IMG/VR virus record: IMGVR_UViG_3300050336_000030
Length of the DNA: 64,000 nucleotides
Reading direction: 5' to 3' (one strand)
Source of the DNA: a virus
Taxonomy: Duplodnaviria > Caudoviricetes
Program-made: the position numbers and the translations under genes
Notes under the pieces: model-generated
What the model saw: only the letters and a program-made list of their open reading frames with translations
What the model was told of the DNA's origin: nothing
The model's database searches: none
In this document: positions 1 to 45,379 of the stretch, in pieces
How positions within the stretch are numbered: position 1 is the stretch's first letter
Layout: every line of letters starts with the position of its first letter

Positions 1-2462
1 ATTATATTTTTTTCATTTGATTTAATACGTTGTTTTTTACATAATTTCGAATAATTACTCAAACTAGTTTTATATTCGTTGTATATTTTACTTACTTTCT
101 CATATAAATCTTTAGAATATTCTGTATCACTTTTTAAAATTGAATAATCAAATTCGCTTCCATTGTTAAATCTAAAATTGTCAAACTTACTTTCTATTTT
201 CCAACATATTTTATTTATTATACAAGGATTCATACCTAAAGGAATTTTTTTATAATAGTAATAAATAAATTTTTCTTCTTCTTTTGTCTTTTTTTCTTTA
301 GATAGCAATTCGTCAAAAGTAATCCCAAATTGCATGATACATTTATCATTGTTATTCTGTTTGTAATCTTCATATTTATGTTTTTCTTTTGGATATATAT
401 ATTGCATAAAGTAAGGTTTTTTATCTGCAATTATAGTGCGATTAATTACATTATTTTTATTTTGCTTTGAAGAATAATTACTGTTATATTTATTTGATAT
501 CCAATTGTGCCATTCTTCAGGCATAGGATTAGATTCAATTCCTTTGGTCTTGTCAATTGCATTTTGCTGATATAATTGACCACATTTAATCCTATAATCC
601 AAAATATTATATTCTCTAGTATTTGGCTTATATTGTGATTGTACCTCAATCATAGATGTGATTTTATTAGTAATTTCACCAACAGCATTACCAAAACTAT
701 TTATATTTGCTTGTATAAAACTATCTTCTGTTGGTACGCACTTAGGGGCTTTGCGTTGCTCACATATAATTGCCGGTAATATTTTTGTGTTTTCAACAAT
801 AAGCGGCATTGACACATTTATGACACAATCTCCATCTTTGTCCAACCCATTCATTGCATGTGCCGATGTATCCCAACTATTAAAAATACTAATAGTTTTC
901 ATATATTTATAAAATTCATCCATTTCTTCATTATGTACGATTTCAAATACTCTAATATTATTATGACATGTCATTGGTGCTCTAAAACTTGCTATTTTAT
1001 TTACTTCTTTATCTAACCAATACTTTGAATACATTTGTCCAGCCTTTAATAATCCTGTAACTTTTAATCCAAACATAGACTGACATAATGAATATGGATC
1101 TCCACTTACTAATGAATAATTAGCTGGAACATTCAAAACTCCTACTTTCGCTTCATTAATTCTTTTTCGTATCATTGAATGTATCCTATTCCTAACAAAA
1201 GGATCATTCATCATACGTTTATCAATCATAAGAGCTGTAGAAAAATCATTATCCAAATGTTGTACATTGATTTTATTTAATTCAGTGCCTTTTATATAAA
1301 GTAAAGTTTTCCTATAATCACCGCTTAAAATATCGTATATTTCATTAATAGTAGATTCGATCAATTCATCAATTTGTTCATCTGTAAAATCATAGCTCTG
1401 TAAAAATTGGTAATTCATAGTACGTTCATTTTCCAATTCTTCTTCTGAGGCTTTTGTAATTGAAAAAGTATAATTATTCTTTTTGCAATTATACAGGTAC
1501 ATGTATATTGACTGATATGAATCCCATAATTTTAACATAGACTCCGTTAAAACTAACTCTATTCTATCTATATGATGCCAGGCGCCCCAAACATCCTGAA
1601 TATATTTTATGCCGTTATCCCGTGCAAATTTTTGAAAGTCAACGCAAAATACAGCCCCCTTACAAAAACTATTCCGTATAACACATCCAGATAGAATATA
1701 ATCTTCTTCAATATCATTACTCCATCGCTCCATTAGTGATGGCATGGCAAGTCCATAACCATCACTATCATTTAATTCTATATAATCATTTATTAATTGC
1801 ATTTTTGGTTGTTTCATATTGCTATCATCTAATTTAATATAATCTGTTTTAAATTTGGTAATACAATCTTTTACAACAACAATTCCTTTTGGCATAGAAA
1901 CAGGGGTAGAAGCACTACATGTTAATGCTTGGTAAGCTTCTAATTTTGCAGGAGAGAACTCTTTACTTTTATCTCTTCCATTATCAATACGCCTTTTAAG
2001 CTCAGGTAATAATTTTTCATTTACAAAAACTATAGTTGAATTTTTAACACCTCCAGTTGTTCCTAATAAACGCCTATAAGTAATATCGTTAATTATGAAT
2101 CCATTTTTACATATTTTTTGATAATCTTTTAATTTATCTATGACAACACACATGTAATCTGGTTTAAATAATAAATCATCTAGCTGTTTATAATACATTT
2201 TTATTTCATTTTGTGTTTGCCTTATGTTTGGATTTCTTTTTAGCTTTTTTATTCTGTTTTTAATGAAACTAATTGTTATTTCTGGATTAAATACATCGTT
2301 AACTTCATCAATAAACCTTAAAATTTGATTATCGCTTAATGCTATCAATTCATTATTTACTCTAGCTTCATCTATTGACATATTTATATTCCAATCAGCC
2401 CTTCTTAAACGAGAAGAATGAACTTTTAAAATATATCTTTGCGAGGTTAGTTGTTTGGACAT
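1..2462 (-). CDS. yonO: YonO-like single-subunit (double-psi beta-barrel) phage RNA polymerase, C-terminus beyond window edge
   Basis: Hand translation from ATG 2462 (RBS GAGGAGG): MSKQLTSQRYILKVHSSRL...GTTGGVKNSTIVF...DSDGYG...FRAPMT...NGLDKDGD. Catalytic DxDGD at 828-842; frame runs open to position 1. Confidence 0.9.
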   Translation of the reverse strand, partial: MSKQLTSQRYILKVHSSRLRRADWNINMSIDEARVNNELIALSDNQILRFIDEVNDVFNPEITISFIKNRIKKLKRNPNIRQTQNEIKMYYKQLDDLLFKPDYMCVVIDKLKDYQKICKNGFIINDITYRRLLGTTGGVKNSTIVFVNEKLLPELKRRIDNGRDKSKEFSPAKLEAYQALTCSASTPVSMPKGIVVVKDCITKFKTDYIKLDDSNMKQPKMQLINDYIELNDSDGYGLAMPSLMERWSNDIEEDYILSGCVIRNSFCKGAVFCVDFQKFARDNGIKYIQDVWGAWHHIDRIELVLTESMLKLWDSYQSIYMYLYNCKKNNYTFSITKASEEELENERTMNYQFLQSYDFTDEQIDELIESTINEIYDILSGDYRKTLLYIKGTELNKINVQHLDNDFSTALMIDKRMMNDPFVRNRIHSMIRKRINEAKVGVLNVPANYSLVSGDPYSLCQSMFGLKVTGLLKAGQMYSKYWLDKEVNKIASFRAPMTCHNNIRVFEIVHNEEMDEFYKYMKTISIFNSWDTSAHAMNGLDKDGDCVINVSMPLIVENTKILPAIICEQRKAPKCVPTEDSFIQANINSFGNAVGEITNKITSMIEVQSQYKPNTREYNILDYRIKCGQLYQQNAIDKTKGIESNPMPEEWHNWISNKYNSNYSSKQNKNNVINRTIIADKKPYFMQYIYPKEKHKYEDYKQNNNDKCIMQFGITFDELLSKEKKTKEEEKFIYYYYKKIPLGMNPCIINKICWKIESKFDNFRFNNGSEFDYSILKSDTEYSKDLYEKVSKIYNEYKTSLSNYSKLCKKQRIKSNEKNI

Positions 2463-3895
2463 TCATTTTCCTCCTCATTTCTTAATATAAAAACATGTCT
2501 AAATACACTTTCTTTCCCATCATTCATAATTATATAATTATAAATTTCATTCATTGATTTTTGTAATTTTTCAATTATATAATTTAAAATACATTCTTGT
2601 GAAATATCATCAAAATTAAATATACTCACCCAAAAATAATCTTCATGATTGTAATTATATGCATTTTTGATTTTTATATAAATTTTATAACCATCTTTCC
2701 AATTGGAAGTTTTTGGCTTTTCAAAATTCAATTCCCAAATTGAATTTATTATTTGTAAATTAATATTGAATAATACTTCATCTATTTCTTTACAAAATAT
2801 TGGATATTTTAATTCTCTATCGTATATCTCATCTGCCTCATTTTTTATTTTATTAATAACATTTTTTATTTTTGAATATCTAAAAATCCATTCTCTTGAA
2901 TGATACCATTTAGACAAATCCTTATTCGTCATTAATGACTTATAATTACAATAAATATAAAATCCTTCCCTATCTATAAACTGTACTCTATTAATTATTA
3001 CGTTTTCAGGAAACATATTTTTGATATTTGTTTCTGTGAATTCAGTCCGTAAACATGAATTAATTATATCTCTAAATGAATCATTATAATCTTTAACACA
3101 TGACATTTTTTTAACTATATTAAAACAAACTTCTTTATCTTCATTTGGAAGATTATTAAACGAATATAATAATTTTTTAAAATTAGTTCCATGAGTTTTA
3201 AAATTTTGAAGTTCATTCCAAAACCAATCAAGTCTTTCCCACATAATTTTATAATTTAATTTATCTTGGCGTTTCCATTCAAGTTTTCTTTTGGCAATAG
3301 TTTCATCATAATCTGATTTTGTATATAATTTAATAAAGCATTTACCATCAGAATAAATCAGATTAAATTCTGGAATATCGTATGAAAATTTTTGATTAAT
3401 AAAATATCTAACATCAACTTCTACTACGTCGTTTCCTAATTCATCCCACTTTGGAATATAGTGTTCAGTCTTTTTATTTGTATTTTTAATTTCAAAAAAG
3501 AATGTTTTGTCTTCTTTTGTATAAACCGTAATGTCTGGCCTGTAATCACCAAACTTAGTATGATATGTTTTCTCTGTTTCAATTTTTTCTACCGTATAAT
3601 TTTGTTCATTAATTCTCAATTTACACCCAGATTCAAATAACCATGTTTTACATATGAAATGAACAAAAGTTTCATCATTACATCCTCCTGTCTCATGATA
3701 ATAATGTGCTTGTACTTGATATTCTCTGTCATCCTTATATGCTCTTGGCTTTATAATTCCTCTACAACAAGGACAATAATATACGGTATTTTCATTTGCA
3801 TCTTTTATGTGTATGTAATTTGCGTCTTCACCAAGTGAATCTAATGCTACTATGAGTTGCGGTAAATCTTTATACATGTCTTTGTATTCTTCCAT
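2447..3895 (-). CDS. CoiA-like PD-(D/E)XK nuclease-domain protein
   Basis: YYCPCC zinc knuckle, E-x-x-x-H, RPD-ITV...FFEIK motif. Confidence 0.6.
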   Translation of the reverse strand: MEEYKDMYKDLPQLIVALDSLGEDANYIHIKDANENTVYYCPCCRGIIKPRAYKDDREYQVQAHYYHETGGCNDETFVHFICKTWLFESGCKLRINEQNYTVEKIETEKTYHTKFGDYRPDITVYTKEDKTFFFEIKNTNKKTEHYIPKWDELGNDVVEVDVRYFINQKFSYDIPEFNLIYSDGKCFIKLYTKSDYDETIAKRKLEWKRQDKLNYKIMWERLDWFWNELQNFKTHGTNFKKLLYSFNNLPNEDKEVCFNIVKKMSCVKDYNDSFRDIINSCLRTEFTETNIKNMFPENVIINRVQFIDREGFYIYCNYKSLMTNKDLSKWYHSREWIFRYSKIKNVINKIKNEADEIYDRELKYPIFCKEIDEVLFNINLQIINSIWELNFEKPKTSNWKDGYKIYIKIKNAYNYNHEDYFWVSIFNFDDISQECILNYIIEKLQKSMNEIYNYIIMNDGKESVFRHVFILRNEEENECPNN

Positions 3896-4024
3896 TTAAT
3901 TCTCCTCTCAATTTTAATATAATACATTAAGTACCATAAAACTATCACTTAACCACTATTGTAAAAATCAAATTCCCTAAACACAGATAAATCCTTAACC
4001 ATTTCCAATATGGTACCATCCTTT

Positions 4025-4819
4025 CTATTTTTCGGTGTTTTGATCAAACTTCTTCTTTAAATACTTAAACTCTTTTATATAATCAATCCCCCATTGTAAC
4101 TCTTTTTCGTAATTATAATTATCATCAATAATGAAGCTTCCATTTTCAGTATTCTTTTTATACTTATATTTATTAACAAACAGTGTAACTTCCGTATGCC
4201 AATTATCATTTTCATCTTTCCATCGTGGCAACTCATAAGACTTAATAATATTCATTTCATTCAATATTTTTACCGACCTGGATATATACCTGTTGCTTAA
4301 ACCGATATCTTTCTCAATATTGATATACATCCGGTAACAAAATTCAGGTTTATCTGATTCATTGCCAATATAATATTCTTGCCTACGCAACATATTGACT
4401 CGCAAGTAAGAGAGTACAAGCAGTAGAATGGAAGAGTTCATTCTATTTGTATCTTCTGTATATTTTTTAAAGTCTCTTATCTTTTGAATTTCATTAAAGT
4501 AAATAATTGCAAAACTATTTGGAACATCAAACTTATCATTGTTAATAACGGCTTCGCAAAACAAATTTGATAAAATATTTCCATTAACCGTTATGTATTC
4601 ATTATTAACTAATCCATTTATGCATTGTGTGACTTGGTCATTAATTTTATTTTTATGATAATCAACTGAATGACCACACCACCCAACTATATTATTACAA
4701 GAAAACCCAACAGTATCATCAAACCCTCTTTTTGAAGCAAAATAAGAATATACCATAACATATTTCTCTTTAAAATCTTTAGTATAAATTATTTCTCTTG
4801 GTATTAATATGTAATTGAT
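4025..4819 (-). CDS. Putative winged-helix/Rep-like DNA-binding protein (ORF-track start 4756; frame extends to an ATC at 4819 behind GGAGG)
   Basis: Two HTH-like segments; upstream in-frame INYILIPREII with an RBS 8 nt before the ATC. Confidence 0.5.
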   Translation of the reverse strand: MNYILIPREIIYTKDFKEKYVMVYSYFASKRGFDDTVGFSCNNIVGWCGHSVDYHKNKINDQVTQCINGLVNNEYITVNGNILSNLFCEAVINNDKFDVPNSFAIIYFNEIQKIRDFKKYTEDTNRMNSSILLLVLSYLRVNMLRRQEYYIGNESDKPEFCYRMYINIEKDIGLSNRYISRSVKILNEMNIIKSYELPRWKDENDNWHTEVTLFVNKYKYKKNTENGSFIIDDNYNYEKELQWGIDYIKEFKYLKKKFDQNTEK

Positions 4820-4852
4820 TTTTACACCCTCCCTATAACTGTAAATTTATGT

Positions 4853-4924
4853 ATATTTTAATTTAGGTACATTCACCAATGGTCTAAAATAAAAAATATT
4901 TTAATTTAGGACATTGAAAATGGC
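4853..4924. repeat. Two imperfect direct repeats ATATTTTAATTTAGG(T)ACATT..AATGG, possibly iterons or operators
   Basis: Copies at about 4853 and 4897. Confidence 0.5.
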
Positions 4925-5073
4925 ACTTTGGTTACACTCATAAACTATATATACAAATATAACTATAGATTACTTTTTGCTACGCAATCGAAATAAACTT
5001 TTTGCATCTATTTCTTGTTTTATTTTTACCATACCATTTCTCCTTTCTGATTAATTTTATCATATTTCGAATA

Positions 5074-5178
5074 GTATCATATAACTATCACTGTAACCTT
5101 TTTCTTTGTAATATTCTATCCCTACACTTATAGAATACCACAGCAAAACTACTTTGTCAATACGTTTCATATAACTAA
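5074..5178 (-). promoter_or_regulatory. Leftward sigma-A promoter flanked by two phage operator copies; drives the operon containing the RNAP
   Basis: Minus strand TTAGTTATATGAAACGtaTTGACA-N14-TGgTATTCT; second operator copy at 5074-5091. Confidence 0.7.
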
Positions 5179-5225
5179 TACATAAAATTTTTTAATGAGC
5201 GTAAGTTTCCCTACACCCATAATGA

Positions 5226-5807
5226 TTATAATTTGAAGTTGCTGAAGTCTGTATTTATGATTTTGTACTTTACATTACATTTCTCTGGTAACTTTATATT
5301 ATCTCCAATTATAAATATCATTGGCATGATAGGGTAGTGGTTCTTGTAATTTCCACTTATATAAAATTTTTCATATTTGTTATAATTAAATCCTTTATGG
5401 CTTATTTCTACTTCAAGTAATCCTACATCAAGTTTTCCATTGTATCTGTAACCAAATACTGCATCAGGTCTTATATCATCGTATACGGGTTCTATCTTAA
5501 AATTTAATATTTCTGCTTTCTTGTGAAGTTCTCTGTAAAAATCCGTTACCAATATGCTATGTCTTAGCTGCTTAGGTAATGTTTTCTTTGTGTGATAGAT
5601 ATATTCTTGTGATACAAAATCTCTGGTACGTCTAATCATCTTTTCTTTATATATCATCGCTAATCTCTTATAACATGATCTTACACTTGGAAAGAATACT
5701 TCAGCTATTGTAGAGGTAGTAGCTACTTTATAGTTGTTTATAAAGTTAATTATCTCGTAATCTCTACTTGTCATCATGGCCTCTATCCTTTCATCAAAAA
5801 TTTTCAA
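5226..5807 (-). CDS. Replication-relaxation (Replic_Relax) family protein
   Basis: N-terminal wHTH (TSRDYEII), H..LV.DFY and IRPDA...LLEVE nuclease motifs; directly downstream of FtsK. Confidence 0.75.
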   Translation of the reverse strand: MKIFDERIEAMMTSRDYEIINFINNYKVATTSTIAEVFFPSVRSCYKRLAMIYKEKMIRRTRDFVSQEYIYHTKKTLPKQLRHSILVTDFYRELHKKAEILNFKIEPVYDDIRPDAVFGYRYNGKLDVGLLEVEISHKGFNYNKYEKFYISGNYKNHYPIMPMIFIIGDNIKLPEKCNVKYKIINTDFSNFKL

Positions 5808-7029
5808 TTACCTGTAATAATTCATCATCTGTAGTGATTTTTTCATTTAACATAAATGCTTTGTTAATATAGGTATGTTTAATCAGTTCCTTACATTGTT
5901 CTATATCCAAATAAGGACATTGTATCTCAGTAATTTTCCCTCCACGTTTAAATTTACCATGACCATTTCCATGTAATTTTTCTAATCCAGTTTCATCAAT
6001 AATAATGCTGCTATTTGTTCCATTGAGTGTTTTTAACCCTAATACGTTGCCTATATTGACCTTTATTCCTCCAGTTACAACTTTAGAATCTGGTCTTTGC
6101 GTTGCAATTATAACATGTATACCACAACTTCTCGCTTTTCTCCCAAGTTCTTCTATTAGAGATAAACCATCTTTATTGTATTGTAAATCAGCAAATTCAT
6201 CTATTATTAGAATTTGATAATCAATTTTTGTATCTTTAAATTTACTATTATAACCTTTGATTCCAGTTACTCCAACACTATAAAAAAGATTGCTTCTTCG
6301 TTCAACCTCAATACATAATTCTTGTAATATTTTTTTTGCCTCACTAATATTACGCGAAAAACTTATTACTTGTTTTGACTTTGAAAATACAGAAAATTCA
6401 ACCCCCATTTTAAGATCTATTAAATGAAGTTTAATGTTAGTTGTAAGTAAAATATTAGTTATAATCGATCTAATTATTGTGCTCTTTCCTGATCCTGTTT
6501 CTCCGGCTATAAGCATATGTGGTTCTCCATCGGATAGGTCACATGTAATTAATTCTCCCCGTCTATCATATCCGATAATGATTGGCACATCACCTTTAAT
6601 CTTAATGGGAGAGTAGTGGTAATTGGATTTTAATTTCTCATTATATTCTTCAATGTATATTTCTTTATAAGTATATTTGATATCTATATCTTTTCCCACA
6701 TATTGCTCTATAGCTTCTTTTTTATCAAGAAAGTCCGTTAATGATAATCCACATGGCAGTGTAAATTTATAAATGGTACTGTAATCTGTTTTGTGTTTGC
6801 TTTTGAATATTGGGTATGCAATTCCTATTCCTAAGTCAAGATTCTTAAATATCTTATTGTATTTACTCCAAGTCCATCCATAATAAGCTAATCCAGCAAC
6901 ACCACTTGCGTTTAGCATATAACTAATCGGTGCAAATGGTGGATAGAGTGCAGATATAAATGCTCCACCTATAATGCAATAAATACTGGTTTCAATAAGT
7001 GAATCTTTCTTATCTTTTTTACTTGCCAT
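5794..7029 (-). CDS. FtsK/SpoIIIE-domain ATPase with N-terminal membrane anchor
   Basis: PHMLIAGETGSGKS, LIDLK, LIIDEFADL, ARSCGIHVIIATQRP. Confidence 0.9.
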   Translation of the reverse strand: MASKKDKKDSLIETSIYCIIGGAFISALYPPFAPISYMLNASGVAGLAYYGWTWSKYNKIFKNLDLGIGIAYPIFKSKHKTDYSTIYKFTLPCGLSLTDFLDKKEAIEQYVGKDIDIKYTYKEIYIEEYNEKLKSNYHYSPIKIKGDVPIIIGYDRRGELITCDLSDGEPHMLIAGETGSGKSTIIRSIITNILLTTNIKLHLIDLKMGVEFSVFSKSKQVISFSRNISEAKKILQELCIEVERRSNLFYSVGVTGIKGYNSKFKDTKIDYQILIIDEFADLQYNKDGLSLIEELGRKARSCGIHVIIATQRPDSKVVTGGIKVNIGNVLGLKTLNGTNSSIIIDETGLEKLHGNGHGKFKRGGKITEIQCPYLDIEQCKELIKHTYINKAFMLNEKITTDDELLQVIENF

Positions 7030-7037
7030 AAAACCTC

Positions 7038-7322
7038 CTATTCAAAAACACCTAATAGAGTATCAATACCATTTTCATTTATTGGCAGGTTATTATTTAA
7101 CACTGGCCTATAACTATAATTTTTATTATATTCGTGCGGATTTTCCTCTCGTTCTAATTTTTCCATTGCAGCTTCTTTTAACCAACCACTAACATCAATA
7201 AAATTACATCTTTTTTCTATACGAAAATATAATTCCAATTCTTTTGGTTTTCTTTTAAATGATACTTCAATAACCGGATTTCTATCACTCTCTGGATTCC
7301 ATATTTTATTTTTATTTCTCAT
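7038..7322 (-). CDS. Putative ParR-like adaptor/DNA-binding protein
   Basis: Small ORF directly after ParM; RHH-like N-terminus (VSF...ELELY...SGWLKEA) and disordered tail. Confidence 0.55.
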   Translation of the reverse strand: MRNKNKIWNPESDRNPVIEVSFKRKPKELELYFRIEKRCNFIDVSGWLKEAAMEKLEREENPHEYNKNYSYRPVLNNNLPINENGIDTLLGVFE

Positions 7323-7324
7323 AA

Positions 7325-8245
7325 CTACCTCCTAGTACAGAATACTTGTGGCTGATTGAGAATATTACCAAATTTTTGTAATCCCACTTTGTAATAGCCT
7401 AATGCATTTGAAAATTGTGAATTTGGCATTAATTTGACTGACGGGAAGTACTGTTTAAACAATTCATAGAATATAATTGCACTTCCACCACAGAGGTAGA
7501 TTTGTGTACTGGTAGACGGATAGTTTAATTGGAACTCTTTTATAATAGGATTTAAATATTGTTTTAATGTTGGAATTAAGAAATCGTTAGATACTTTTTC
7601 ACCATAAATGGTAAGGCCGTTAACAAGAATGTTTTCTGCATATTGAATATCATAAGCCAAGTTATACTTCTCGTTTACCTGGTTAATTATCTTGGAATAT
7701 ATTTTTTGTATGCCTTGCATCCAAGTATCATATTTGTGTAAGATTGGATTCCCATACATTATTTCTAAGTACGCAATATCAATTGACATTCCACCAAAGT
7801 CAAAGATAATAATATTTCCACTTACATCTTGTAGACTTAATAATGCTCCGATTCCTTGTGGCATAACCAATACATCATTAATTTGAAATTTAAATGGCTT
7901 ATCTTTGTAGATGACTTCACAGTTGTTATATCCGAGTATCATTTTCTTGAATTTATCTTTCTGAGATTTTAATTGGCTTATGGGTAATCCAACAACTAAG
8001 TAATAATCATCTGATCCGGTAAGTGCTAAGTTAGTAAGCGTAGTAACTTTGTTCATTTCTGAATCTGATTTGTCGAATTGTATATTTCTGTCACCAGCTC
8101 CGACGGAGTAATCAACTCCATCAATGGTTATAAAAGCGGAACTTCCCATTGTGATTCCTGACTTTGTATAAGCGGAACGAAATATCCTCATTTCATTATC
8201 TTTGGTGTATAAGTATCCATGGTCTAATCCTTTAATTTTACTCAT
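7325..8245 (-). CDS. parM: ParM/StbA actin-like partition ATPase
   Basis: GLDHGYLYTK, VVGLP, VMPQG, IFDFGGMSID, LCGGSA, QFSNALGY actin-fold motifs. Confidence 0.9.
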   Translation of the reverse strand: MSKIKGLDHGYLYTKDNEMRIFRSAYTKSGITMGSSAFITIDGVDYSVGAGDRNIQFDKSDSEMNKVTTLTNLALTGSDDYYLVVGLPISQLKSQKDKFKKMILGYNNCEVIYKDKPFKFQINDVLVMPQGIGALLSLQDVSGNIIIFDFGGMSIDIAYLEIMYGNPILHKYDTWMQGIQKIYSKIINQVNEKYNLAYDIQYAENILVNGLTIYGEKVSNDFLIPTLKQYLNPIIKEFQLNYPSTSTQIYLCGGSAIIFYELFKQYFPSVKLMPNSQFSNALGYYKVGLQKFGNILNQPQVFCTRR

Positions 8246-30157: not shown

Positions 30158-30187
30158 TTTCTTGTGACTTGGGAAGGTGGTGATAAG

Positions 30188-31405
30188 ATGAAAGTCACAA
30201 GAGTAGAACAACAAATGATTAAGAAAAGTCACCCATTATGGAAAGTTATTGATGAAAAATGTTATCATTCTAAAAACTTATATAATGAAGCTAATTATGT
30301 AATCAGACAAGAGTTTATAAATAATGGTAAATATATTAATTACTATGATATGAACAAAGAATTTAAAACACACGATAATTATAAGCTATGCGGAAGTCAA
30401 CCTGCTAATTGTACTTTGAGGCTACTTGATAAGAACTGGAAATCTTTCTTTGTAGCTATAAAGGATTGGACTAAGAATAAAGAAAAATATCTTGGTATGC
30501 CAAAAATGCCAAAGTATCTTAAAAAGGATGGTAGATATATTTGGAGTATCCCTAACAATACCGTTTTCATTAAAGAAGCTGGTAAAATTCATTTTGCAAT
30601 AAGAAAAATGCAATCGTATAATTGGAAGACTAACGCAAAAGGCAGATTATTACAAGTAAGATTCGTACCAAGAGCAAACTTCTACATGATGGAAATTATA
30701 TATGAAACAGAAGTGATTGATATACCTTCAGATCTTAAATCTAGCAGAATTACATCAATTGATTTAGGGATAGACAACTTTATAACTATGACAAATAATA
30801 TCGGCATTCAGCCAATTATTATTAACGGTAAAGGTATTAAATCCATAAATCAATTTTATAACAAACAAAGAGCCAAGATGCAAAGTGAACTAAAAATAAG
30901 GCATAATAAGTTTACAAGTAACAAATTTATTGCAATGACTAACAAAAGAAATAGGCGAATCAAGAATTATATTCATTGTACTAGTAAATATATAGTCGAT
31001 TATTGCAAGAAAAATAACATTGACACATTAGTTTGTGGGATTAATAAGGAATGGAAGCAAGAATCAAGTATGAGTAAAGTTTCAAATCAAAAGTTTATTA
31101 CAATTCCTTATGATATGTTAATTAGCCAGCTAGAATACAAGTGTCAGGATTATGGCATTAAATTCATCACAACAGAAGAGAACTATACAAGCGGTACATC
31201 ATTCTTAGATGGTGAAATTCCATGTAAAGAAAATTATGATAAGAGCAGACGTATCAAGAGAGGTTTGTTTCAATCTAAAAATCAATTAATAAACAGCGAT
31301 GTAAATGGTTCACTACAAATCATGAAGAAAGTATTTCCAGATGCATTTAAGCAATGCTACGGAATAGAGGGTGTTCTAACCCCTGTAATTATAAGTGTAG
31401 CGTAA
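30188..31405 (+). CDS. tnpB: TnpB RNA-guided endonuclease (IS200/IS605 family, no TnpA)
   Basis: KNLYN, SIDLGIDN, NQFYNK, EENYTS, NSDVNGS; no CxxC zinc finger. Confidence 0.9.
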   Translation: MKVTRVEQQMIKKSHPLWKVIDEKCYHSKNLYNEANYVIRQEFINNGKYINYYDMNKEFKTHDNYKLCGSQPANCTLRLLDKNWKSFFVAIKDWTKNKEKYLGMPKMPKYLKKDGRYIWSIPNNTVFIKEAGKIHFAIRKMQSYNWKTNAKGRLLQVRFVPRANFYMMEIIYETEVIDIPSDLKSSRITSIDLGIDNFITMTNNIGIQPIIINGKGIKSINQFYNKQRAKMQSELKIRHNKFTSNKFIAMTNKRNRRIKNYIHCTSKYIVDYCKKNNIDTLVCGINKEWKQESSMSKVSNQKFITIPYDMLISQLEYKCQDYGIKFITTEENYTSGTSFLDGEIPCKENYDKSRRIKRGLFQSKNQLINSDVNGSLQIMKKVFPDAFKQCYGIEGVLTPVIISVA

Positions 31406-33536: not shown

Positions 33537-34784
33537 ATGATTGATGATAAAAAATGTAGAGAAGTACTACAGAGAAAGATAGAACAAATTAAACAAACTA
33601 AACCGAGAGCAGCTGTAAAAGAAATATCTCAGGTTATGGCTGACAGATTTAATGTTGATCATGGTAGAACAATGGATATTTTTAATTATCGTGAACCAAT
33701 TGAATCTATGCCATATGATATGTTATATAAATTAATGGAATCTATCAAAAAGGTTTCTATTGATAGATGGAATGAATTAAATCCAGAAGATTTAGATGTA
33801 AGAAGTTATTTCACAGTTTTAGAAATAGAAAAATATAAAGTTCCACTTGAAGAAAAAGATAAAGATTTTGATATTGTTATAAAGAGCGGAAACTGGCATC
33901 ATACAAATATATACCCATATAACTATTATACAATTCATACTGATATTAATGAAGTTGTGAGATGGAGGGATTATAATAAATTAGGGTTTAATCCAGAAAC
34001 TCAAAGAGACTTAATTGTTGTAGAAACTAATGGAATACCAGTTAAAAAATTAGATATTAAACTTAAGTCAATTAAACAAATGAAAAAGGCTATGATTGAG
34101 GGCACGTACTTTCCTGTACAAGGAATAATCAATATTAATCCAGAACATAACGAAAGCGATATAACAATTATCAATGGAGATTTAATAATTAAAAATGATA
34201 TCAAACTTGATTTAGTAGAAGGCTTCCATAACTATTTGTCAGAAACACAAGTAAAAGATGACAATCCAGATTGGAATTTTCCATGCGAATTTAGATTAAT
34301 ATTTATGAACACATCAAGAACTAACGGTGTGATAAAACAAATGGATATAAAAAATCATTTGGCAGAGACACAAACATCTAGTATGGATGAAAACGATGAT
34401 TATACTTATGTCATAACTCAATTAAATACTTCAAGTGGATTTTATTTGAAAGGTTCAATAGATAAAAAAATGTTTGTTTATCTATATAAAATAATTAAAA
34501 GATTATTTGAAATAGATGGAAATAGAGAAAAAATTGCATTTATTAATAATATAAAAGACAAAATAAATAAAATTATTATCAGAACTGATCATTATGATAA
34601 AGCACTTAGTAAAGAAGAGTGGTTTTCATATTTATATATAATACAAAAAACCAACGATGATTCATTTGATAGAATTATTAATAACGATAAACTATATGAA
34701 ACAATATCTGGAATTTCATTTATGGATACTCCAAGTAAAAAACATTATAAATTATTAGATGTATTATTAAAAGAGGTGATATAA
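33537..34784 (+). CDS. YopQ-like (DndB/ParB-like) protein
   Basis: NPETQR, ININ, DLVEGFHN; translationally coupled to the MrpR-like gene as in SPbeta. Confidence 0.6.
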   Translation: MIDDKKCREVLQRKIEQIKQTKPRAAVKEISQVMADRFNVDHGRTMDIFNYREPIESMPYDMLYKLMESIKKVSIDRWNELNPEDLDVRSYFTVLEIEKYKVPLEEKDKDFDIVIKSGNWHHTNIYPYNYYTIHTDINEVVRWRDYNKLGFNPETQRDLIVVETNGIPVKKLDIKLKSIKQMKKAMIEGTYFPVQGIININPEHNESDITIINGDLIIKNDIKLDLVEGFHNYLSETQVKDDNPDWNFPCEFRLIFMNTSRTNGVIKQMDIKNHLAETQTSSMDENDDYTYVITQLNTSSGFYLKGSIDKKMFVYLYKIIKRLFEIDGNREKIAFINNIKDKINKIIIRTDHYDKALSKEEWFSYLYIIQKTNDDSFDRIINNDKLYETISGISFMDTPSKKHYKLLDVLLKEVI

Positions 34785-35794
34785 TGGAAATTAAAGAAGA
34801 TTTATATTATAGGGAAACTAAGTATCAGAAAAAAAGATATTTAGAAAACTGTAGATTTGAAGAACCTACACGCGAGGTTATAGATAAGTGGTTTAGAATG
34901 TCGAATGTTGTTGAATCAAAAGAAAATACTGATTTAGCTAACTTTAATAGAAAACAAGTTATGAATCTATACAAAAATTTTAATTCAAAATCCAAGCATA
35001 CATTAATTACAGTATCTTTATATTTTTCTGATTATTATAATTGGTGCATATCTGAGGGATTGATTGATTCTAGGAGTTTTATTAATCAATATGATATTAA
35101 AATGGTTAAAAGTATAATAGATGAAATCATTCCAATTGAATTAATATCAGATAAAGTTATTACGAAAAATGATATTATCAATGTTTATTTGGAAAAAGTT
35201 CCAGATGTTTCAAATAAACTATTGTTATATGCGCCATTTTGTGGCGTATATGGGAATGAAGCTTCTGATTTAGTACTTTTAAAGATTGAAGATATTGATG
35301 AAAATAATAAAACAGTTCGTTTAAATTCATCTAAAGTTTTAAATGTAGACGATTTATTTGTTGAATTAGCAAAGAAAGCTAACGAAGCTAAAAAATATAT
35401 GCCAGAGGGGGTAGCTGGCGAAGTCAGAGCAATAAGACCCGAAAGGTATGTATATGATGAGAGTGATTATATAATAAAAGCTTGCGACACAGGCAAAAAA
35501 GATACACCAGCTAGTTACAAAATGATATTAGCTAGATACAGCTTAATTCAAAAACAGACGGAGAATAGATCTATAAATGGAAATAATTTATATAAAAGCG
35601 GATTAGTAAATTATGTTAAAGAGAAATTTAATGAACGTGGAATCACATTAAAGAAAGCCGTTTATGATAAATATAGTGGAAGAAATTATACTTATTCTAG
35701 TGATATTCAAGAATATATAAATGAGTTTGGATCCAATATGAATGACAGAATGTTTAGATTGAGATTTGGAGAATATTTAGATTTATATGAATAA
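34784..35794 (+). CDS. MrpR/YopR-like master repressor (catalytically degenerate tyrosine-recombinase fold)
   Basis: Recombinase-like layout lacking the catalytic R and HxxR (CGVYGNE, NLYKSG); synteny with YopQ. Confidence 0.7.
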   Translation: MEIKEDLYYRETKYQKKRYLENCRFEEPTREVIDKWFRMSNVVESKENTDLANFNRKQVMNLYKNFNSKSKHTLITVSLYFSDYYNWCISEGLIDSRSFINQYDIKMVKSIIDEIIPIELISDKVITKNDIINVYLEKVPDVSNKLLLYAPFCGVYGNEASDLVLLKIEDIDENNKTVRLNSSKVLNVDDLFVELAKKANEAKKYMPEGVAGEVRAIRPERYVYDESDYIIKACDTGKKDTPASYKMILARYSLIQKQTENRSINGNNLYKSGLVNYVKEKFNERGITLKKAVYDKYSGRNYTYSSDIQEYINEFGSNMNDRMFRLRFGEYLDLYE

Positions 35795-36385: not shown

Positions 36386-36777
36386 TTTAGTGAATGGCAG
36401 CCTATAAACGACTGCCATATTTTTAAAAATAATCGTAATAGTTATATGAAACGTATTGACAAACGAAATTATTAGTAGTAATATAATGGTATAAGATAAA
36501 GAAAGGGGATAGAAAGGTCGTGAACACAAGTTGAGCTATAAAAGATGTAAAAAAGATTTAGAGAGTTTTATTAAATATAATGAAAAGCTAATTGCAAAAT
36601 TAGAAGCCAGTAACGGAGATATACATAAGATAAATAAACTGAAAGAGAACGTGGAATTGTATGAACAGCAGCTGAAAGAATTTGATATGTAATAGTGATA
36701 TGAACCAAAAATGTTGAAAGGAATTGTGTGATAGTATTTTACAAATAATAAGGTAGAATAAAATATAAGAGGTAGAT

Positions 36778-38675: not shown

Positions 38676-40388
38676 TTATGCAAGAATTTTCAAGATATGA
38701 ATGTGATTTATTAACAAATTGTGCAGACGAACCGGAGAGATATGGAATTAATATTAATAGTAAAACAAGTGAAGTAACGATAACCGATAAATTACATAAT
38801 AAAAATTGGAGATTAGGAAATGAAAAAGATGTATTGGTTAAATTATTTAGATATTGCCAGATAGAGCCATCCTTTAAAATTAGTAAATAGTGATAGTAAT
38901 ATAAAACAAATACTTGACACATTATAAAATAAGTGATAATATAATATTGTAGTGATAGTTATATGAAACGTAACAGAAAGGAAAGTGATTAATATTAATT
39001 TAAGTGATAAAGACAAAAAGGAGATGTGCCAATGCCGTAAATGTGGTCGTGTATTTAATCAAAATGAGGTTAAACATGTACATAAAAAGCAACTTGGACA
39101 GAATATTACATATGGGGTATGTCCCGAATGTGGAAGTATAGAATGGGGATTAATTAATTATCCTATTCAAGAAGAAGACTTAATTTACAAGACAGGAAAG
39201 TTTTATTTATATAACGGTAGACATATTAGAAATAACTTACATAAACTTGGAGTGTATTAGAAGAAAGGTGGATTAATATGCAGTATTTATTTAATGAAAA
39301 AGAATTTGAATCATATAAAAGAATGAAAAATGACAGAGAAATTAATTTAAAAGCTTTGGAATTATATCTTGAAAATAATAGTGGCAACAGAAGTATGTTA
39401 AAGGATAGACCGCTATTTGAAGAAGATAGGAAGAAACATAAAGAGGAAAATAGCAAATAAACTGTTTGATTTATTGAGAAAGGAGAATATATTTGGATCA
39501 AAAAATATTAATTAGTTATGCAAAATATGGGTTGGTAGTTCTAATAAAAGAAAATGAAAATGCTGAATTGATAGAAAGACATTACGGAAATGATATAGAA
39601 GCGGAGCAAATACATAAAGAGAATCTGGTTTTTAAAAATGATTTATTGGAATTATCAAAGTAAAATACGGATTCTACGTATAAAATGAAAGGAAAATATA
39701 TGAATTTAAATAAAAGATTAACAGATAGACAATCTGGTGGTATTTGCATGGATGATATTGAAAAAATTATGGAAAAATTAAAGTTTTTTGAAGATACTTA
39801 TGAAGATGGTAAACTCTTAATTTTACCTTGTAAAATAGGTGATGAAATATATTACATAGAGGATAAATATATAAGTTGTTCTGGATGCCCGTATTTTGAT
39901 GATGAAGATAGTTGCGAACATCAAGATAGATGTCCTCAGACAATTAAAAAGATTAAATTTCAGCATAGTATGATTCCTTTTATTAGAACATCATATTTTC
40001 TCACAAAAGAAGAAGCTGAAAAAGAGTTTAATAAATATCTATAAAAAACTGATTTCATGAAGAAAGGAAAAAATATGGCAAGTAAAAGATATTATGTATG
40101 TGATTATTGCAAAAAGGAAGAACAAACTGAAAATAATGGATGGAAACCTAATGGATGGCAAAGCGTTGAGCTAAGATTAGGACAATATAACAGCAAAACA
40201 TTTGATTTATGCTATGAGTGTTCAAAGAAATTAGGTTTGGTTAAAGAAGATAAAAAACCAAAAGATATTAGTGAGCCAACTACATATGAAAAGTTATTTG
40301 ACATTATTTCTGAAATAGTAAATGAAGCAATAGATAATAGATAGTAATATGAAACGTGAAATTTATAGAGAAAAAGAAAGGATAGAAA

Positions 40389-40604
40389 ATGGAAGAAAGA
40401 CTTAGAGTAGAAAAAGCGTTCAAAGATTTAGGTATAAAGATAAAGAGGTTTAGAAGATATAAATCTACATATAGCATATTGAACAGTTTGTCTAAAAAAT
40501 GGAATAAATTGACCAAGGATGATAAAGAACATTATTCTAAAGAAATAGCAGGAGATAAAGATGCTGTCGCATTTAGACATAATATGGATCAAAAAACAAC
40601 ATGA
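40389..40604 (+). CDS. Tape-measure-protein-like fragment
   Basis: VEKAFKDLGIKI...KSTYSIL..LSKKWNKLT...IAG. Confidence 0.55.
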   Translation: MEERLRVEKAFKDLGIKIKRFRRYKSTYSILNSLSKKWNKLTKDDKEHYSKEIAGDKDAVAFRHNMDQKTT

Positions 40605-41105
40605 AATCATTCTTCAATTAAGTTATAAGAAAGGAAGCAATATGAAAGATAAAATAAATACGTTTTTAGCATTAATGATTCATTTCTTCGCAATACTATG
40701 CATCGGAGAGGGGGTTGGAGAATTCATAATAAGCCGAAAAGTTACATGGTGCACTTGGCTAAATTTTATTAGTTGTATTGTATTTATATGTTTATATGCA
40801 TACATATCATTTAAGAGTGATATAAAACGAAATGAGTAATTACGTCAAAGAAGAGCTTTGATGAGATTTAATGAAAGGAGACTTTATGTTAGTTAAAGTA
40901 AAATTAATAAGTGATTCTAGTCTTCAGGAAATGTTCCAAGATGTAATTTCAATTACTTCTACATATTATAATTATGTTATTGTAACGGATAAAGCTGCAG
41001 TTGGTGGAGCAAAGTTTTTTGACAAAGAAATTTACTATTTAGAAGTATGCAATTAAAAGACTATAAAAACAACAATCTATGGTCAATTTGAAAGGAGAAA
41101 GTAGA

Positions 41106-41546
41106 ATGAACAATAGTAATGAAGGATTTGTAATATTGACAAATATGATTAAATCAGCCGTAGACGACGTTATGGCATTAGATAACGCTCTTACTGATTT
41201 AAAACAAGAAACAAATAATATTGACAATATAGTAAGAATTAATGGAAATGATTTTACAGACTACGACAAAGCAATAGAATATATAAATAAATTGAAAAGT
41301 AAAGAAGTTGAGAAATGGTATTTACATGATGTTGATTTATTTGGCATAGGTTATGCAATTATGAAATGGTGCCAGGCTAAAAATGTATATTATAACGAAA
41401 ATATACTTAAATCAGCATTAGATGAATATTCAGTAAAATCAGGTGTAATTGGTAGTAATTTTGCTAAAGATGTTTTGCATCTCTATAATAAGATTTCTTC
41501 TTTACCACAGTTTAGAGGAAAAAGATTTGAGGGATTAGTACGATAG
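41106..41546 (+). CDS. Protein with a tape-measure-like N-terminal segment
   Basis: IKSAVDDVMALDNALTDLKQET. Confidence 0.45.
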   Translation: MNNSNEGFVILTNMIKSAVDDVMALDNALTDLKQETNNIDNIVRINGNDFTDYDKAIEYINKLKSKEVEKWYLHDVDLFGIGYAIMKWCQAKNVYYNENILKSALDEYSVKSGVIGSNFAKDVLHLYNKISSLPQFRGKRFEGLVR

Positions 41547-41883
41547 AAGAGGCATTTTATGCGAAAATTAAAGTTTGATGAAAGGAAATAGAAATTTATG
41601 ACAGTTACAGTATTAAAATCTAGGCTTAATGATATTGAGAAAATTAGAAATGGGTTTAATGTTATGATTAACACTGGTAGAGAAAATCCTGAAAATATCA
41701 AAAAGATGGCTGAGGTTTGTGGGTTTGATAGTCAAAAAGATTTAGAAAACATGCTTAACAATAACTATATTATAAATATGCTTACAAGTGCATATAATGA
41801 CGCAATTGACAATGCGGAATGTCCAAATGTATCAATAGAATAAACTGAAAGTGGCATAAAATAGAAATTTGGAGGTGATTTAA

Positions 41884-42132
41884 ATGAAAATGACAAAGGA
41901 AGAATTTATTGAGAAGTGCGGTAATGATATTACATTGATGTCAAATGTATCAGGAACTTCTACGGAAGAGTGTGCGGAATCTTTATATGTTACCTATTGT
42001 AGTTTCAATATTGACGAAGACAAAGCAAATGATATTATTGACAAGTTATCAAATTTACCACTTGAGAACCCAGTAAGTGTAAAAGAATTGGAAGATGGAC
42101 TCAAAAACGCAATGAAATATGTTACCAAATAG
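41884..42132 (+). CDS. Tape-measure-protein-like fragment
   Basis: MSNVSG.STEE.AESL....FNI...A..IIDKL......VSV.EL..GL. Confidence 0.6.
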   Translation: MKMTKEEFIEKCGNDITLMSNVSGTSTEECAESLYVTYCSFNIDEDKANDIIDKLSNLPLENPVSVKELEDGLKNAMKYVTK

Positions 42133-42839
42133 AGGATTGATGCTAAATTTAGAAAGGAGTTTAATGGAGCGATTAACTGATAAAGATGGTCTAAAGGCTT
42201 GTTACTGTAATGGTAAATATTTTGATAAATTAAATGGTCAAACAGAATGTAAACATGAATGTCAACCAATACATGATGCTTTAATAAAATTGCAGCAATT
42301 TGAAGATTTAGAAGAAAAGAATTTAATTGGATGTGCCAATGGTGAGTTAGAAAGAGATTGTAGAAATTGTGATAACATGAGTAGTTGTATAGAACTATTT
42401 GGGTTTTATATCGATGCTAAGAAATGTAGCAGATTTAAATATATAAATAAAACAGAATCAATGTGATATTTGATTGTGAGTTTAATGTTCCCGACATTGA
42501 TGTCGGAAAGATAGAAGGGAGAATTAAGTGGGACAGTATAGCGAAAAGGTAAATAATACGCCAAAACAAAAGAAAATTAAAAAGAAGTTAGAAGAATTAG
42601 GACATACAAATGTAGAAGTTTGGTGGGAAAAATTGCAACCTGCTTGTGAAATGTGTGGTATGGGCGGTGGATATATTTTTTGTTCAGATCAAGAACAAGT
42701 GTATCCTCTTGGATATTCTCTCGAAGATGCCTTATATTCTATTGAAAATTATAAATGGTTAGATGTAAGAGATAAATAAATCAGGTGTTTTATTCACATT
42801 ATAAATAAGAACTATATTAAACAATAAAAAGGAGGATAA

Positions 42840-45013: not shown

Positions 45014-45379
45014 ATGAATGAGCAAGAATTAGAAGATGAAGTATTTAAATATTATGATACTCCGTTTATAAATAAGTGTAAAGATTTGTTACGGGAAATA
45101 TCGGTTACTTTAAAGAATTTTGGATTTGTTGATAAATATTTTGAATATAAAGAAGATAAGATTACTAAAGAAGAGTTAGAAAATTACTTTTATGATACAC
45201 TAATTAAATTAGATGAATATAGAAGACATGATTTAAATGAATTGTCTAAAATGTTATCATCTTCAAATTGTGGATGGTATGAATATAAGATTGGTGAAAT
45301 AATACATAATCAGTTAATAAAAATTTGGTTTTTAGATGAATTTAAAGATAGTAATATGAAACAAATGCTTGACAAGTAA
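45014..45379 (+). CDS. Hypothetical protein
   Basis: RBS. Confidence 0.7.
   Translation: MNEQELEDEVFKYYDTPFINKCKDLLREISVTLKNFGFVDKYFEYKEDKITKEELENYFYDTLIKLDEYRRHDLNELSKMLSSSNCGWYEYKIGEIIHNQLIKIWFLDEFKDSNMKQMLDK

Follow-up and report, generated by a model that had tools for sequence, protein, structure and literature searches.

Small phage genes that probably derive from two different parts of a TP901-type tape-measure core

Introduction

DSAD1, an accessory protein of SPbeta-like phages that Garb and colleagues are said to have described in 2022, reportedly inhibits DSR2, a sensor of the tail tube protein. Virion proteins are sensed by bacterial immune receptors, and a conserved segment of the tape-measure protein (TMP) is among the sensed parts: SeAvs18 binds a central helical segment of ~130 residues, the most conserved of the TMP, which is both necessary and sufficient for activation and cell death (PMC13581612, Nature 2026). 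TMPs are also targeted by phages themselves, as in Pseudomonas phage JBD26, where the prophage protein Tab (of the Tab/anti-Tab pair) blocks tail assembly of invading phages via the TMP (PMC10884400). Here we analyse a stretch of 64,000 nucleotides (the window) from the virus record IMGVR_UViG_3300050336_000030, corresponding to positions 32937-96936 of a 139,975-bp record with direct terminal repeats and ~28% G+C. Within 1.75 kb of this window, two mini-genes encode products that resemble different parts of the TP901-type TMP core (PF10145, TIGR01760). We refer to them, as to all window genes, by the position of their first base: 40389 and 41884. A third gene between them, 41106, resembles the same core far more weakly and only by its N-terminal helix.

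How does this locus compare with the described systems? The products of 41884 and 40389 align residue by residue to positions 119-186 and 237-297 of the TP901 core in the profile described below; unlike a TMP, however, each mini-protein spans roughly one fifth to one third of the core and no more, stands alone with 71-82 amino acids (aa) rather than the ~2000 aa of a TMP, and is encoded in an early array. The decoy proposed below would resemble what is said of DSAD1, an accessory protein of the SPbeta group competing with a virion protein for a defence sensor, with the difference that DSAD1 is reportedly not homologous to its rival trigger, whereas the mini-proteins would be homologous to pieces of theirs. 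With respect to SeAvs18, the mini-genes correspond to parts of the helical region that is most conserved among TP901-type TMPs; the sensed segment is likened to the PF10145 core by description, as the text of PMC13581612 does not name the Pfam family, and no phage-encoded mimic is reported there. Tab, likened here by description and not by sequence, is also a small phage-encoded accessory protein that hits rival phages through the TMP, but its specificity maps to the TMP C-terminus and not to the core (PMC10884400). Our literature search found no paper on free-standing TMP-core fragments as accessory genes. One candidate link between PhageMin_Tail and satellites (PMC10111431) was rejected because it concerns a different Pfam family, Phage_min_tail.

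We propose that two distinct sub-segments of the TP901-type TMP core, which do not overlap, gave rise to 41884 and 40389 as free-standing genes, which is very probable, and that these genes may act as partial mimics of that core. For the statement as a whole, identity and mechanism together, we estimate a probability of roughly 45%.

Results

The product of 41884 matched PF10145 at positions 33-104 (E=0.003, 17.8 bits), TIGR01760 at positions 76-143 (E=8.5e-4, 18.4 bits) and the TMP family phrog_4211 at positions 678-738. The product of 40389 matched PF10145 further along, at positions 145-201 (E=0.002, 18.5 bits), as well as phrog_4211 at positions 789-840 (E=3e-5), and had no match to TIGR01760. 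Because these Pfam scores lie below the gathering thresholds, and because stray PF10145 matches also occurred in control phages, we built a custom hidden Markov model (HMM) of 351 positions from ten diverse TMP cores (this phage, the related phage G001, TR-TP1, CB457P2, Stills, PJN02, phiL47, Bak10, BcoS-136 and Tsamsa). Among 999 open reading frames (ORFs), 41884 scored 35.3 bits on this core HMM (E=3e-10, positions 119-186) and 40389 scored 32.5 bits (E=2e-9, positions 237-297), whereas 3,000 shuffles of the three mini-proteins reached 7.8 bits at most. Profile alignment to the TMP core with hhalign assigned the 41884 family a probability of 97.1% and the mini-proteins of the 40389 type, hereafter C-pieces, one of 95.0%.

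Pairwise comparisons pointed the same way. In a tblastn search of 2.3 Gb, 41884 was 40% identical over 60 aa to the TMPs of Tsamsa-like Bacillus phages (E=1e-4), and 40389 aligned to residues 842-894 of the Tsamsa TMP and to residues 430-462 (39% identity) of the phage's own, resident TMP. The latter is a 2007-aa frame (record 1777-7800, minus strand) whose PF10145 domain spans about residues 245-458 and whose nearest TMP is that of a Thomasclavelia phage (40% identity). Among the motifs that the mini-genes and the TMP core alignment have in common are LMSNVS and a W..L(T/S) stretch followed by (I/L)AG. The model of 40389 in the ESM Atlas superposes on TMP clusters (TM 0.79-0.89), while sequence searches of the PDB with 41884, 40389 and the resident TMP core returned no solved relative.

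Could short helical proteins match a helical family by chance? The Pfam E values are only ~1e-3, and similar weak matches fall on unrelated proteins of control phages. Against this stand the core-HMM scores relative to the shuffles, the two hhalign probabilities, the tblastn match to Bacillus phage TMPs and the fact that independent family members match the same model positions. Chance resemblance is thus effectively refuted for 41884 and 40389 and, taken overall, exceedingly unlikely, although it may yet account for the N-terminal helix of 41106. The initial annotation had read all three genes as segments of a TMP and suggested comparing them with TMP profiles; PF10145 and core matches were found for 41884 and 40389, whereas the 7.7% hhalign probability of 41106 makes its count of three too strong.

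When aligned to each other with hhalign, the 41884 family and the C-pieces gave a probability of only 0.1%; they therefore represent distinct pieces rather than repeats of a single unit. Together they leave much of the ~200-350-position core uncovered, with PF10145 represented at positions 33-104 and 145-201 only. Six-frame searches of the whole genome with PF10145, TIGR01760, phrog_4211 and the core HMM found nothing beyond the TMP and these genes, and core-HMM positions 82-118, 187-236 and 298-351 were not found in any genome frame. Nor do the proteins belong to the TMPs in a functional sense, as they are 71-146 aa long and encoded outside the tail module. The matched positions (44-81 for the 41106 helix, 119-186 and 237-297) do not overlap and the three genes are probably co-transcribed, as would be expected if the three products co-assembled into one TMP-core-like domain. 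However, the uncovered positions would be missing from such a domain, and relatives carry single pieces without the others, from which it follows that the pieces do not depend on each other. Co-assembly is therefore very unlikely.

Are the mini-genes maintained as genes? Free-standing homologues of 41884 at 43-70% identity emerged from an exhaustive HMMER search; encoded in the same early array, they belong to four other lineages of related phages: P0014 (80 aa, 70% identity), two of 64 aa (P0016 and P0017) and P0019 (61 aa). PF10145 was matched individually by four of the family's five members, and core-HMM positions 117-187 by all five. Synteny is kept around P0019: 1.8 kb downstream of it comes a clear homologue of window gene 46063, and then AAA_24 and DnaB-like genes; in the P0014 contig (L011), the window's 38985 gene and a 348-aa gene are common with the relative L004. 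Between 41884 and P0014, dN is 0.17 and dS 0.59, a nonsynonymous to synonymous ratio (dN/dS) of 0.29. These comparisons place 41884 under purifying selection, as one of a small family whose members occupy the same genomic position in related phages. Profile scans of viral_contigs, genome_contigs (two scans) and metagenome_contigs added no further members. Two candidates from the HMMER search, P0018 and P0021, were rejected as repeat proteins with summed weak matches; P0015 and P0020, whose long multi-stretch matches follow the same pattern, were left out of the family by that pattern and not by individual inspection.

The C-piece also has analogues, at L004:11591-11776 (61 aa, E=4.5e-6 on the core HMM, TIGR01760 positions 194-235) and L006:10510-10728 (72 aa, E=5e-5 on the core HMM), each 3-4 kb from a homologue of 41106. 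By itself, 40389 is an orphan: no close homologue was found in a search of 5.8 billion proteins or at 90% clustering, and a word-indexed homologue search with 40389 and 41884 matched only the queries themselves. Selection on 40389 cannot be measured for this reason. Neither 40389 nor 41106 had a tblastn match in 50,697 phage records, and the 7 kb around the site had no megablast match in the same records.

These data bear on whether the genes are non-functional debris, the remains of a TMP fragment that entered the early region, where recombination then broke it up and scrambled it. The orphan status of 40389, the scrambled order of the pieces and the presence of only about half of the core would fit such a history. 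Yet each ORF is intact with a good ribosome-binding site (RBS), 41884 has, besides its dN/dS of 0.29, equally small homologues in four other lineages, neither the region nor the genome contains further TMP-like remnants in any frame, and the middle piece does not derive from the resident TMP. We thus consider debris improbable, and mainly a concern for 40389. The initial annotation had argued against simple decay of one gene and called for dN/dS values across homologues; the values obtained for 41884 and for the 41106 family (below), the free-standing homologues and the lack of other TMP debris bear it out, with the reservation that 40389 may still be a product of decay.

From which TMP might the pieces come? 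The 41884 family is 34-45% identical to cores of the Tsamsa/PJN02/phiL47 type and 18-31% identical to the cores of the resident phage and its relative G001. The middle piece is thus closer to Tsamsa/949-type TMP cores than to the resident TMP and is not a recent copy of it. The C-piece 40389 is equidistant from all TMPs in the core alignment (19-27% identity).

The third gene, 41106, is a different case. Its N-terminal helix scored 10.3 bits (E=0.013) on the core HMM at positions 44-81, the helix just before the core, and its homologues scored 8.2 bits at the same place; since hhalign gives the 41106 family a probability of only 7.7% against the TMP core, homology to TMPs is not established. 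When all 6,485 stop-to-stop pieces of the genome's six frames were searched, only the TMP, 41884, 40389 and the 41106 frame reached E<5, so that this helix is the fourth and last core-HMM match of the genome and is located between two of the others, in a span equal to ~1.2% of the genome. We give a TMP origin of the helix roughly even odds. Residues 41-146, the conserved body of the protein, bear no relation to TMPs and fall in no recognisable family; an AlphaFold2 (AF2) model of the family was not usable (pLDDT 46) and the ESM Atlas gave nothing useful. The gene itself is conserved, with ten full-length homologues at 60-77% identity and dN/dS of 0.14-0.23. The arrangement 41106-41884 was considered as a conserved pair, as P0014 follows a 146-aa gene in L011, and rejected because that 146-aa protein is unrelated to 41106.

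Some contigs with a 41106 homologue (P0005) differ downstream: at L005/L007 9791-11881 they encode a Mu-like DDE transposase together with a TniB-like ATPase and a helix-turn-helix (HTH) repressor. These genes stand in place of the downstream early genes of L006, and a transposable element seems to have inserted in this phage region.

The genes around 40389-42132 form a long plus-strand array of small genes. A gene for an MrpR-like repressor (34784-35794) lies upstream of this array, and the replication module, with genes of the AAA_24, DnaB-like and DNA polymerase III alpha-like kinds, lies downstream. This order of repressor, small-gene array and replication module is SPbeta-like. The features of the locus are listed in Table 1. 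Each of the three ATG codons is preceded at 6-8 nt by a Shine-Dalgarno sequence (GAAAGGA for 40389, AAAGGAG for 41106 and GGAGGTG for 41884). We take 41106 and not 41079 as the start of its gene because it follows the RBS and agrees with the homologues. The two genes between 40389 and 41106 had no Pfam or PHROG match and no significant core-HMM match. The genome order is C-piece, N-helix, middle piece, which is not that of a TMP, and the resident TMP lies ~66 kb away. The initial annotation was accurate on all these points, namely three ORFs each with its own RBS, pieces out of order and a location far from tail genes.

Table 1. Coordinates of the mini-genes and associated features in the window
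Feature	Position	Strand	Description
Promoter-like 16-nt motif GATAGTAATATGAAAC	40340..40355	+	33 nt 5' of the 40389 start
Degenerate 18-bp dyad	40349..40366		Junction before 40389; 2 mismatches to ATAAAA-N6-TTTTAT; high background
Mini-gene 40389	40389..40604	+	71 aa; probable C-terminal part of TP901-type TMP core, core-HMM positions 237-297
Intervening gene	40642-40839	+	65-aa predicted membrane protein, not TMP-like
Intervening gene	40871-41056	+	61 aa, not TMP-like
Degenerate 18-bp dyad	41063..41080		Junction before 41106; 2 mismatches
Gene 41106	41106..41546	+	146 aa; conserved, fold unrecognised; N-terminal helix (~residues 5-38) weakly like TMP pre-core helix
18-bp dyad	41543..41560		Overlaps 41106 stop codon; 1 mismatch
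Intervening gene between 41106 and 41884	41598..41843	+	81 aa, not TMP-like (Pfam, PHROG, TIGR01760, core HMM)
Mini-gene 41884	41884..42132	+	82 aa; probable middle of TMP core, core-HMM positions 119-186; family of 61-82 aa proteins

The genes are probably transcribed together. Where 1.1 copies of the 16-nt motif GATAGTWATATGAAAC would be expected, the window has 27, of which 23 are on the plus strand of the plus-strand gene arm. Copies lie mostly on the coding strand of the surrounding genes and usually shortly 5' of a gene, for example at 36437, 38954, 40340, 45347, 45410 and 57239. Since it contains a TAATAT/TTATAT hexamer like a -10 element, the motif is probably a phage-specific promoter element. 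A copy is found 5' of 40389, no other occurs between 40356 and 45346, the next being at 45347, and no intrinsic terminator is present between 39500 and 43500. Thus, the motif at 40340 is likely the start of a transcription unit containing all three genes, which would then be co-transcribed. A scan for sigma-70 promoters gave matches not above shuffled background.

Flanking 18-bp sites had also been claimed for each mini-gene. Dyads with at most two mismatches are indeed present at 40349, 41063 and 41543, but 41884 lacks a good site, with only a three-mismatch dyad at 41856 and none downstream. In our coding, the ATAAAA-N6-TTTTAT pattern hardly exceeds the background of the AT-rich window, with 87 matches where 67 +/- 8 are expected. 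The claim is thus confirmed in a loose sense only.

Discussion

What might the mini-genes do? In the mechanism that we propose, pieces of the TMP core travel as separate small genes in a shuffled early array, which would explain their scrambled order, and are transcribed before the late tail genes. Each mini-protein would present part of the TMP core surface and compete for a partner that binds the core. One candidate partner is a host sensor of the Avs18 kind, which would be occupied without being activated. The other is the TMP, the tail-assembly machinery or a chaperone of a rival phage, in which case the mini-proteins would act as dominant negatives and poison its tails. The likeness of the middle piece to foreign-type TMPs mildly favours this second reading. 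That Avs18 senses a TMP segment and Tab targets TMPs makes a partial mimic of the core plausible; we hold the mimic mechanism as tentative and somewhat doubtful. The broader notion, that large SPbeta-like phages carry early trigger mimics which either occupy an Avs18-like sensor without activating it or cap the TMP or tail chaperone of a rival, appears unlikely.

Several observations weigh against our proposal. The mini-genes, at 17.8-18.5 bits, fall short of the curated cut-offs of 33.2 bits (PF10145) and 28.8 bits (TIGR01760), and weak PF10145 matches (~E=1e-3) also fall on unrelated helical proteins of control phages, such as an NTP pyrophosphohydrolase and a 'sigma factor' of phage Stills. 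An AF2 model of the 41884 family (pLDDT 76, four helices) retrieved nothing at E<1 from BFVD with Foldseek. The orphan 40389 also scores on HMG_box (PF00505; E=0.0012, 19.7 bits), over residues 30-58 only; this is below the 25.4-bit cut-off and does not cover the three-helix domain, and HMG matches in the PDB have E ~0.6. The pieces are not conserved as a set in relatives, and their transcription ahead of the tail genes is deduced from position only. Finally, among the Avs families of PMC13581612, the member named as TMP-sensing is SeAvs18, of Salmonella enterica.

Some of these observations would also suit a function unrelated to tape measures, in which pieces of a TMP core were captured once and exapted as helical modules that now serve as small adaptors or regulators, for example by binding DNA or protein. 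Their neighbours are regulatory and replication genes, and the genes themselves are selected; in addition to the HMG_box score of 40389, members of the 41884 family have weak matches to HTH, SAM and sigma-region-4 families, and the Stills 'sigma factor' contains a PF10145-like region. However, these alternative matches are weaker than the TMP-core signal and vary between members, whereas PF10145 is common to four of the five, and two, possibly three, TMP pieces within 1.75 kb are hard to explain if their TMP origin is irrelevant. We regard such exaptation as rather less than an even prospect, comparable to the mimic mechanism itself.

The Stills protein is a further case of TMP-core likeness in a protein that is not a TMP. 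This Bacillus phage (NC_028777.1) encodes at 69593-71449 (L031) a 618-aa protein annotated as 'RNA polymerase sigma factor', with the PF10145-like region at positions 20-190 (E=3.7e-5) and far from the tail genes.

Selected, free-standing core parts among non-structural genes would offer a concrete and cheap case in which to look at 'trigger mimicry', either as counter-defence or as a weapon against rivals. At 71-82 aa the constructs are short, and natural variants exist, with five members in the 41884 family and C-piece analogues in two related phages. If trigger mimicry holds, counter-defence or competition proteins would be made from pieces of the sensed virion protein itself; even if the mimic idea fails, the mini-genes would illustrate cleanly how sub-domain fragments of a structural protein give rise to new small genes.

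Neighbouring features

A 413-aa protein resembling TnpB/IS605 OrfB, with PF01385 and a Cas12f1-like TNB domain, is encoded within the early gene array at window 30164-31405 (plus strand). Just after 41884, a Cys-rich 115-aa protein is encoded at window 42119-42466 (plus strand); it has a weak paralogue elsewhere in the genome, at G000 100277-100615, and weak relatives in related phages, at L005/L006 3624-3797 (E ~1e-3). In the related phage G001, the region L004 4885-7680 encodes a Cys-rich protein of 349 aa, with a C-terminus that by eye resembles SPASM, followed by four paralogous proteins of 129-186 aa that each begin with a conserved (D/T)(F/Y)VTNSSSSS(F/Y) motif. These may be a modification enzyme and its substrate family.

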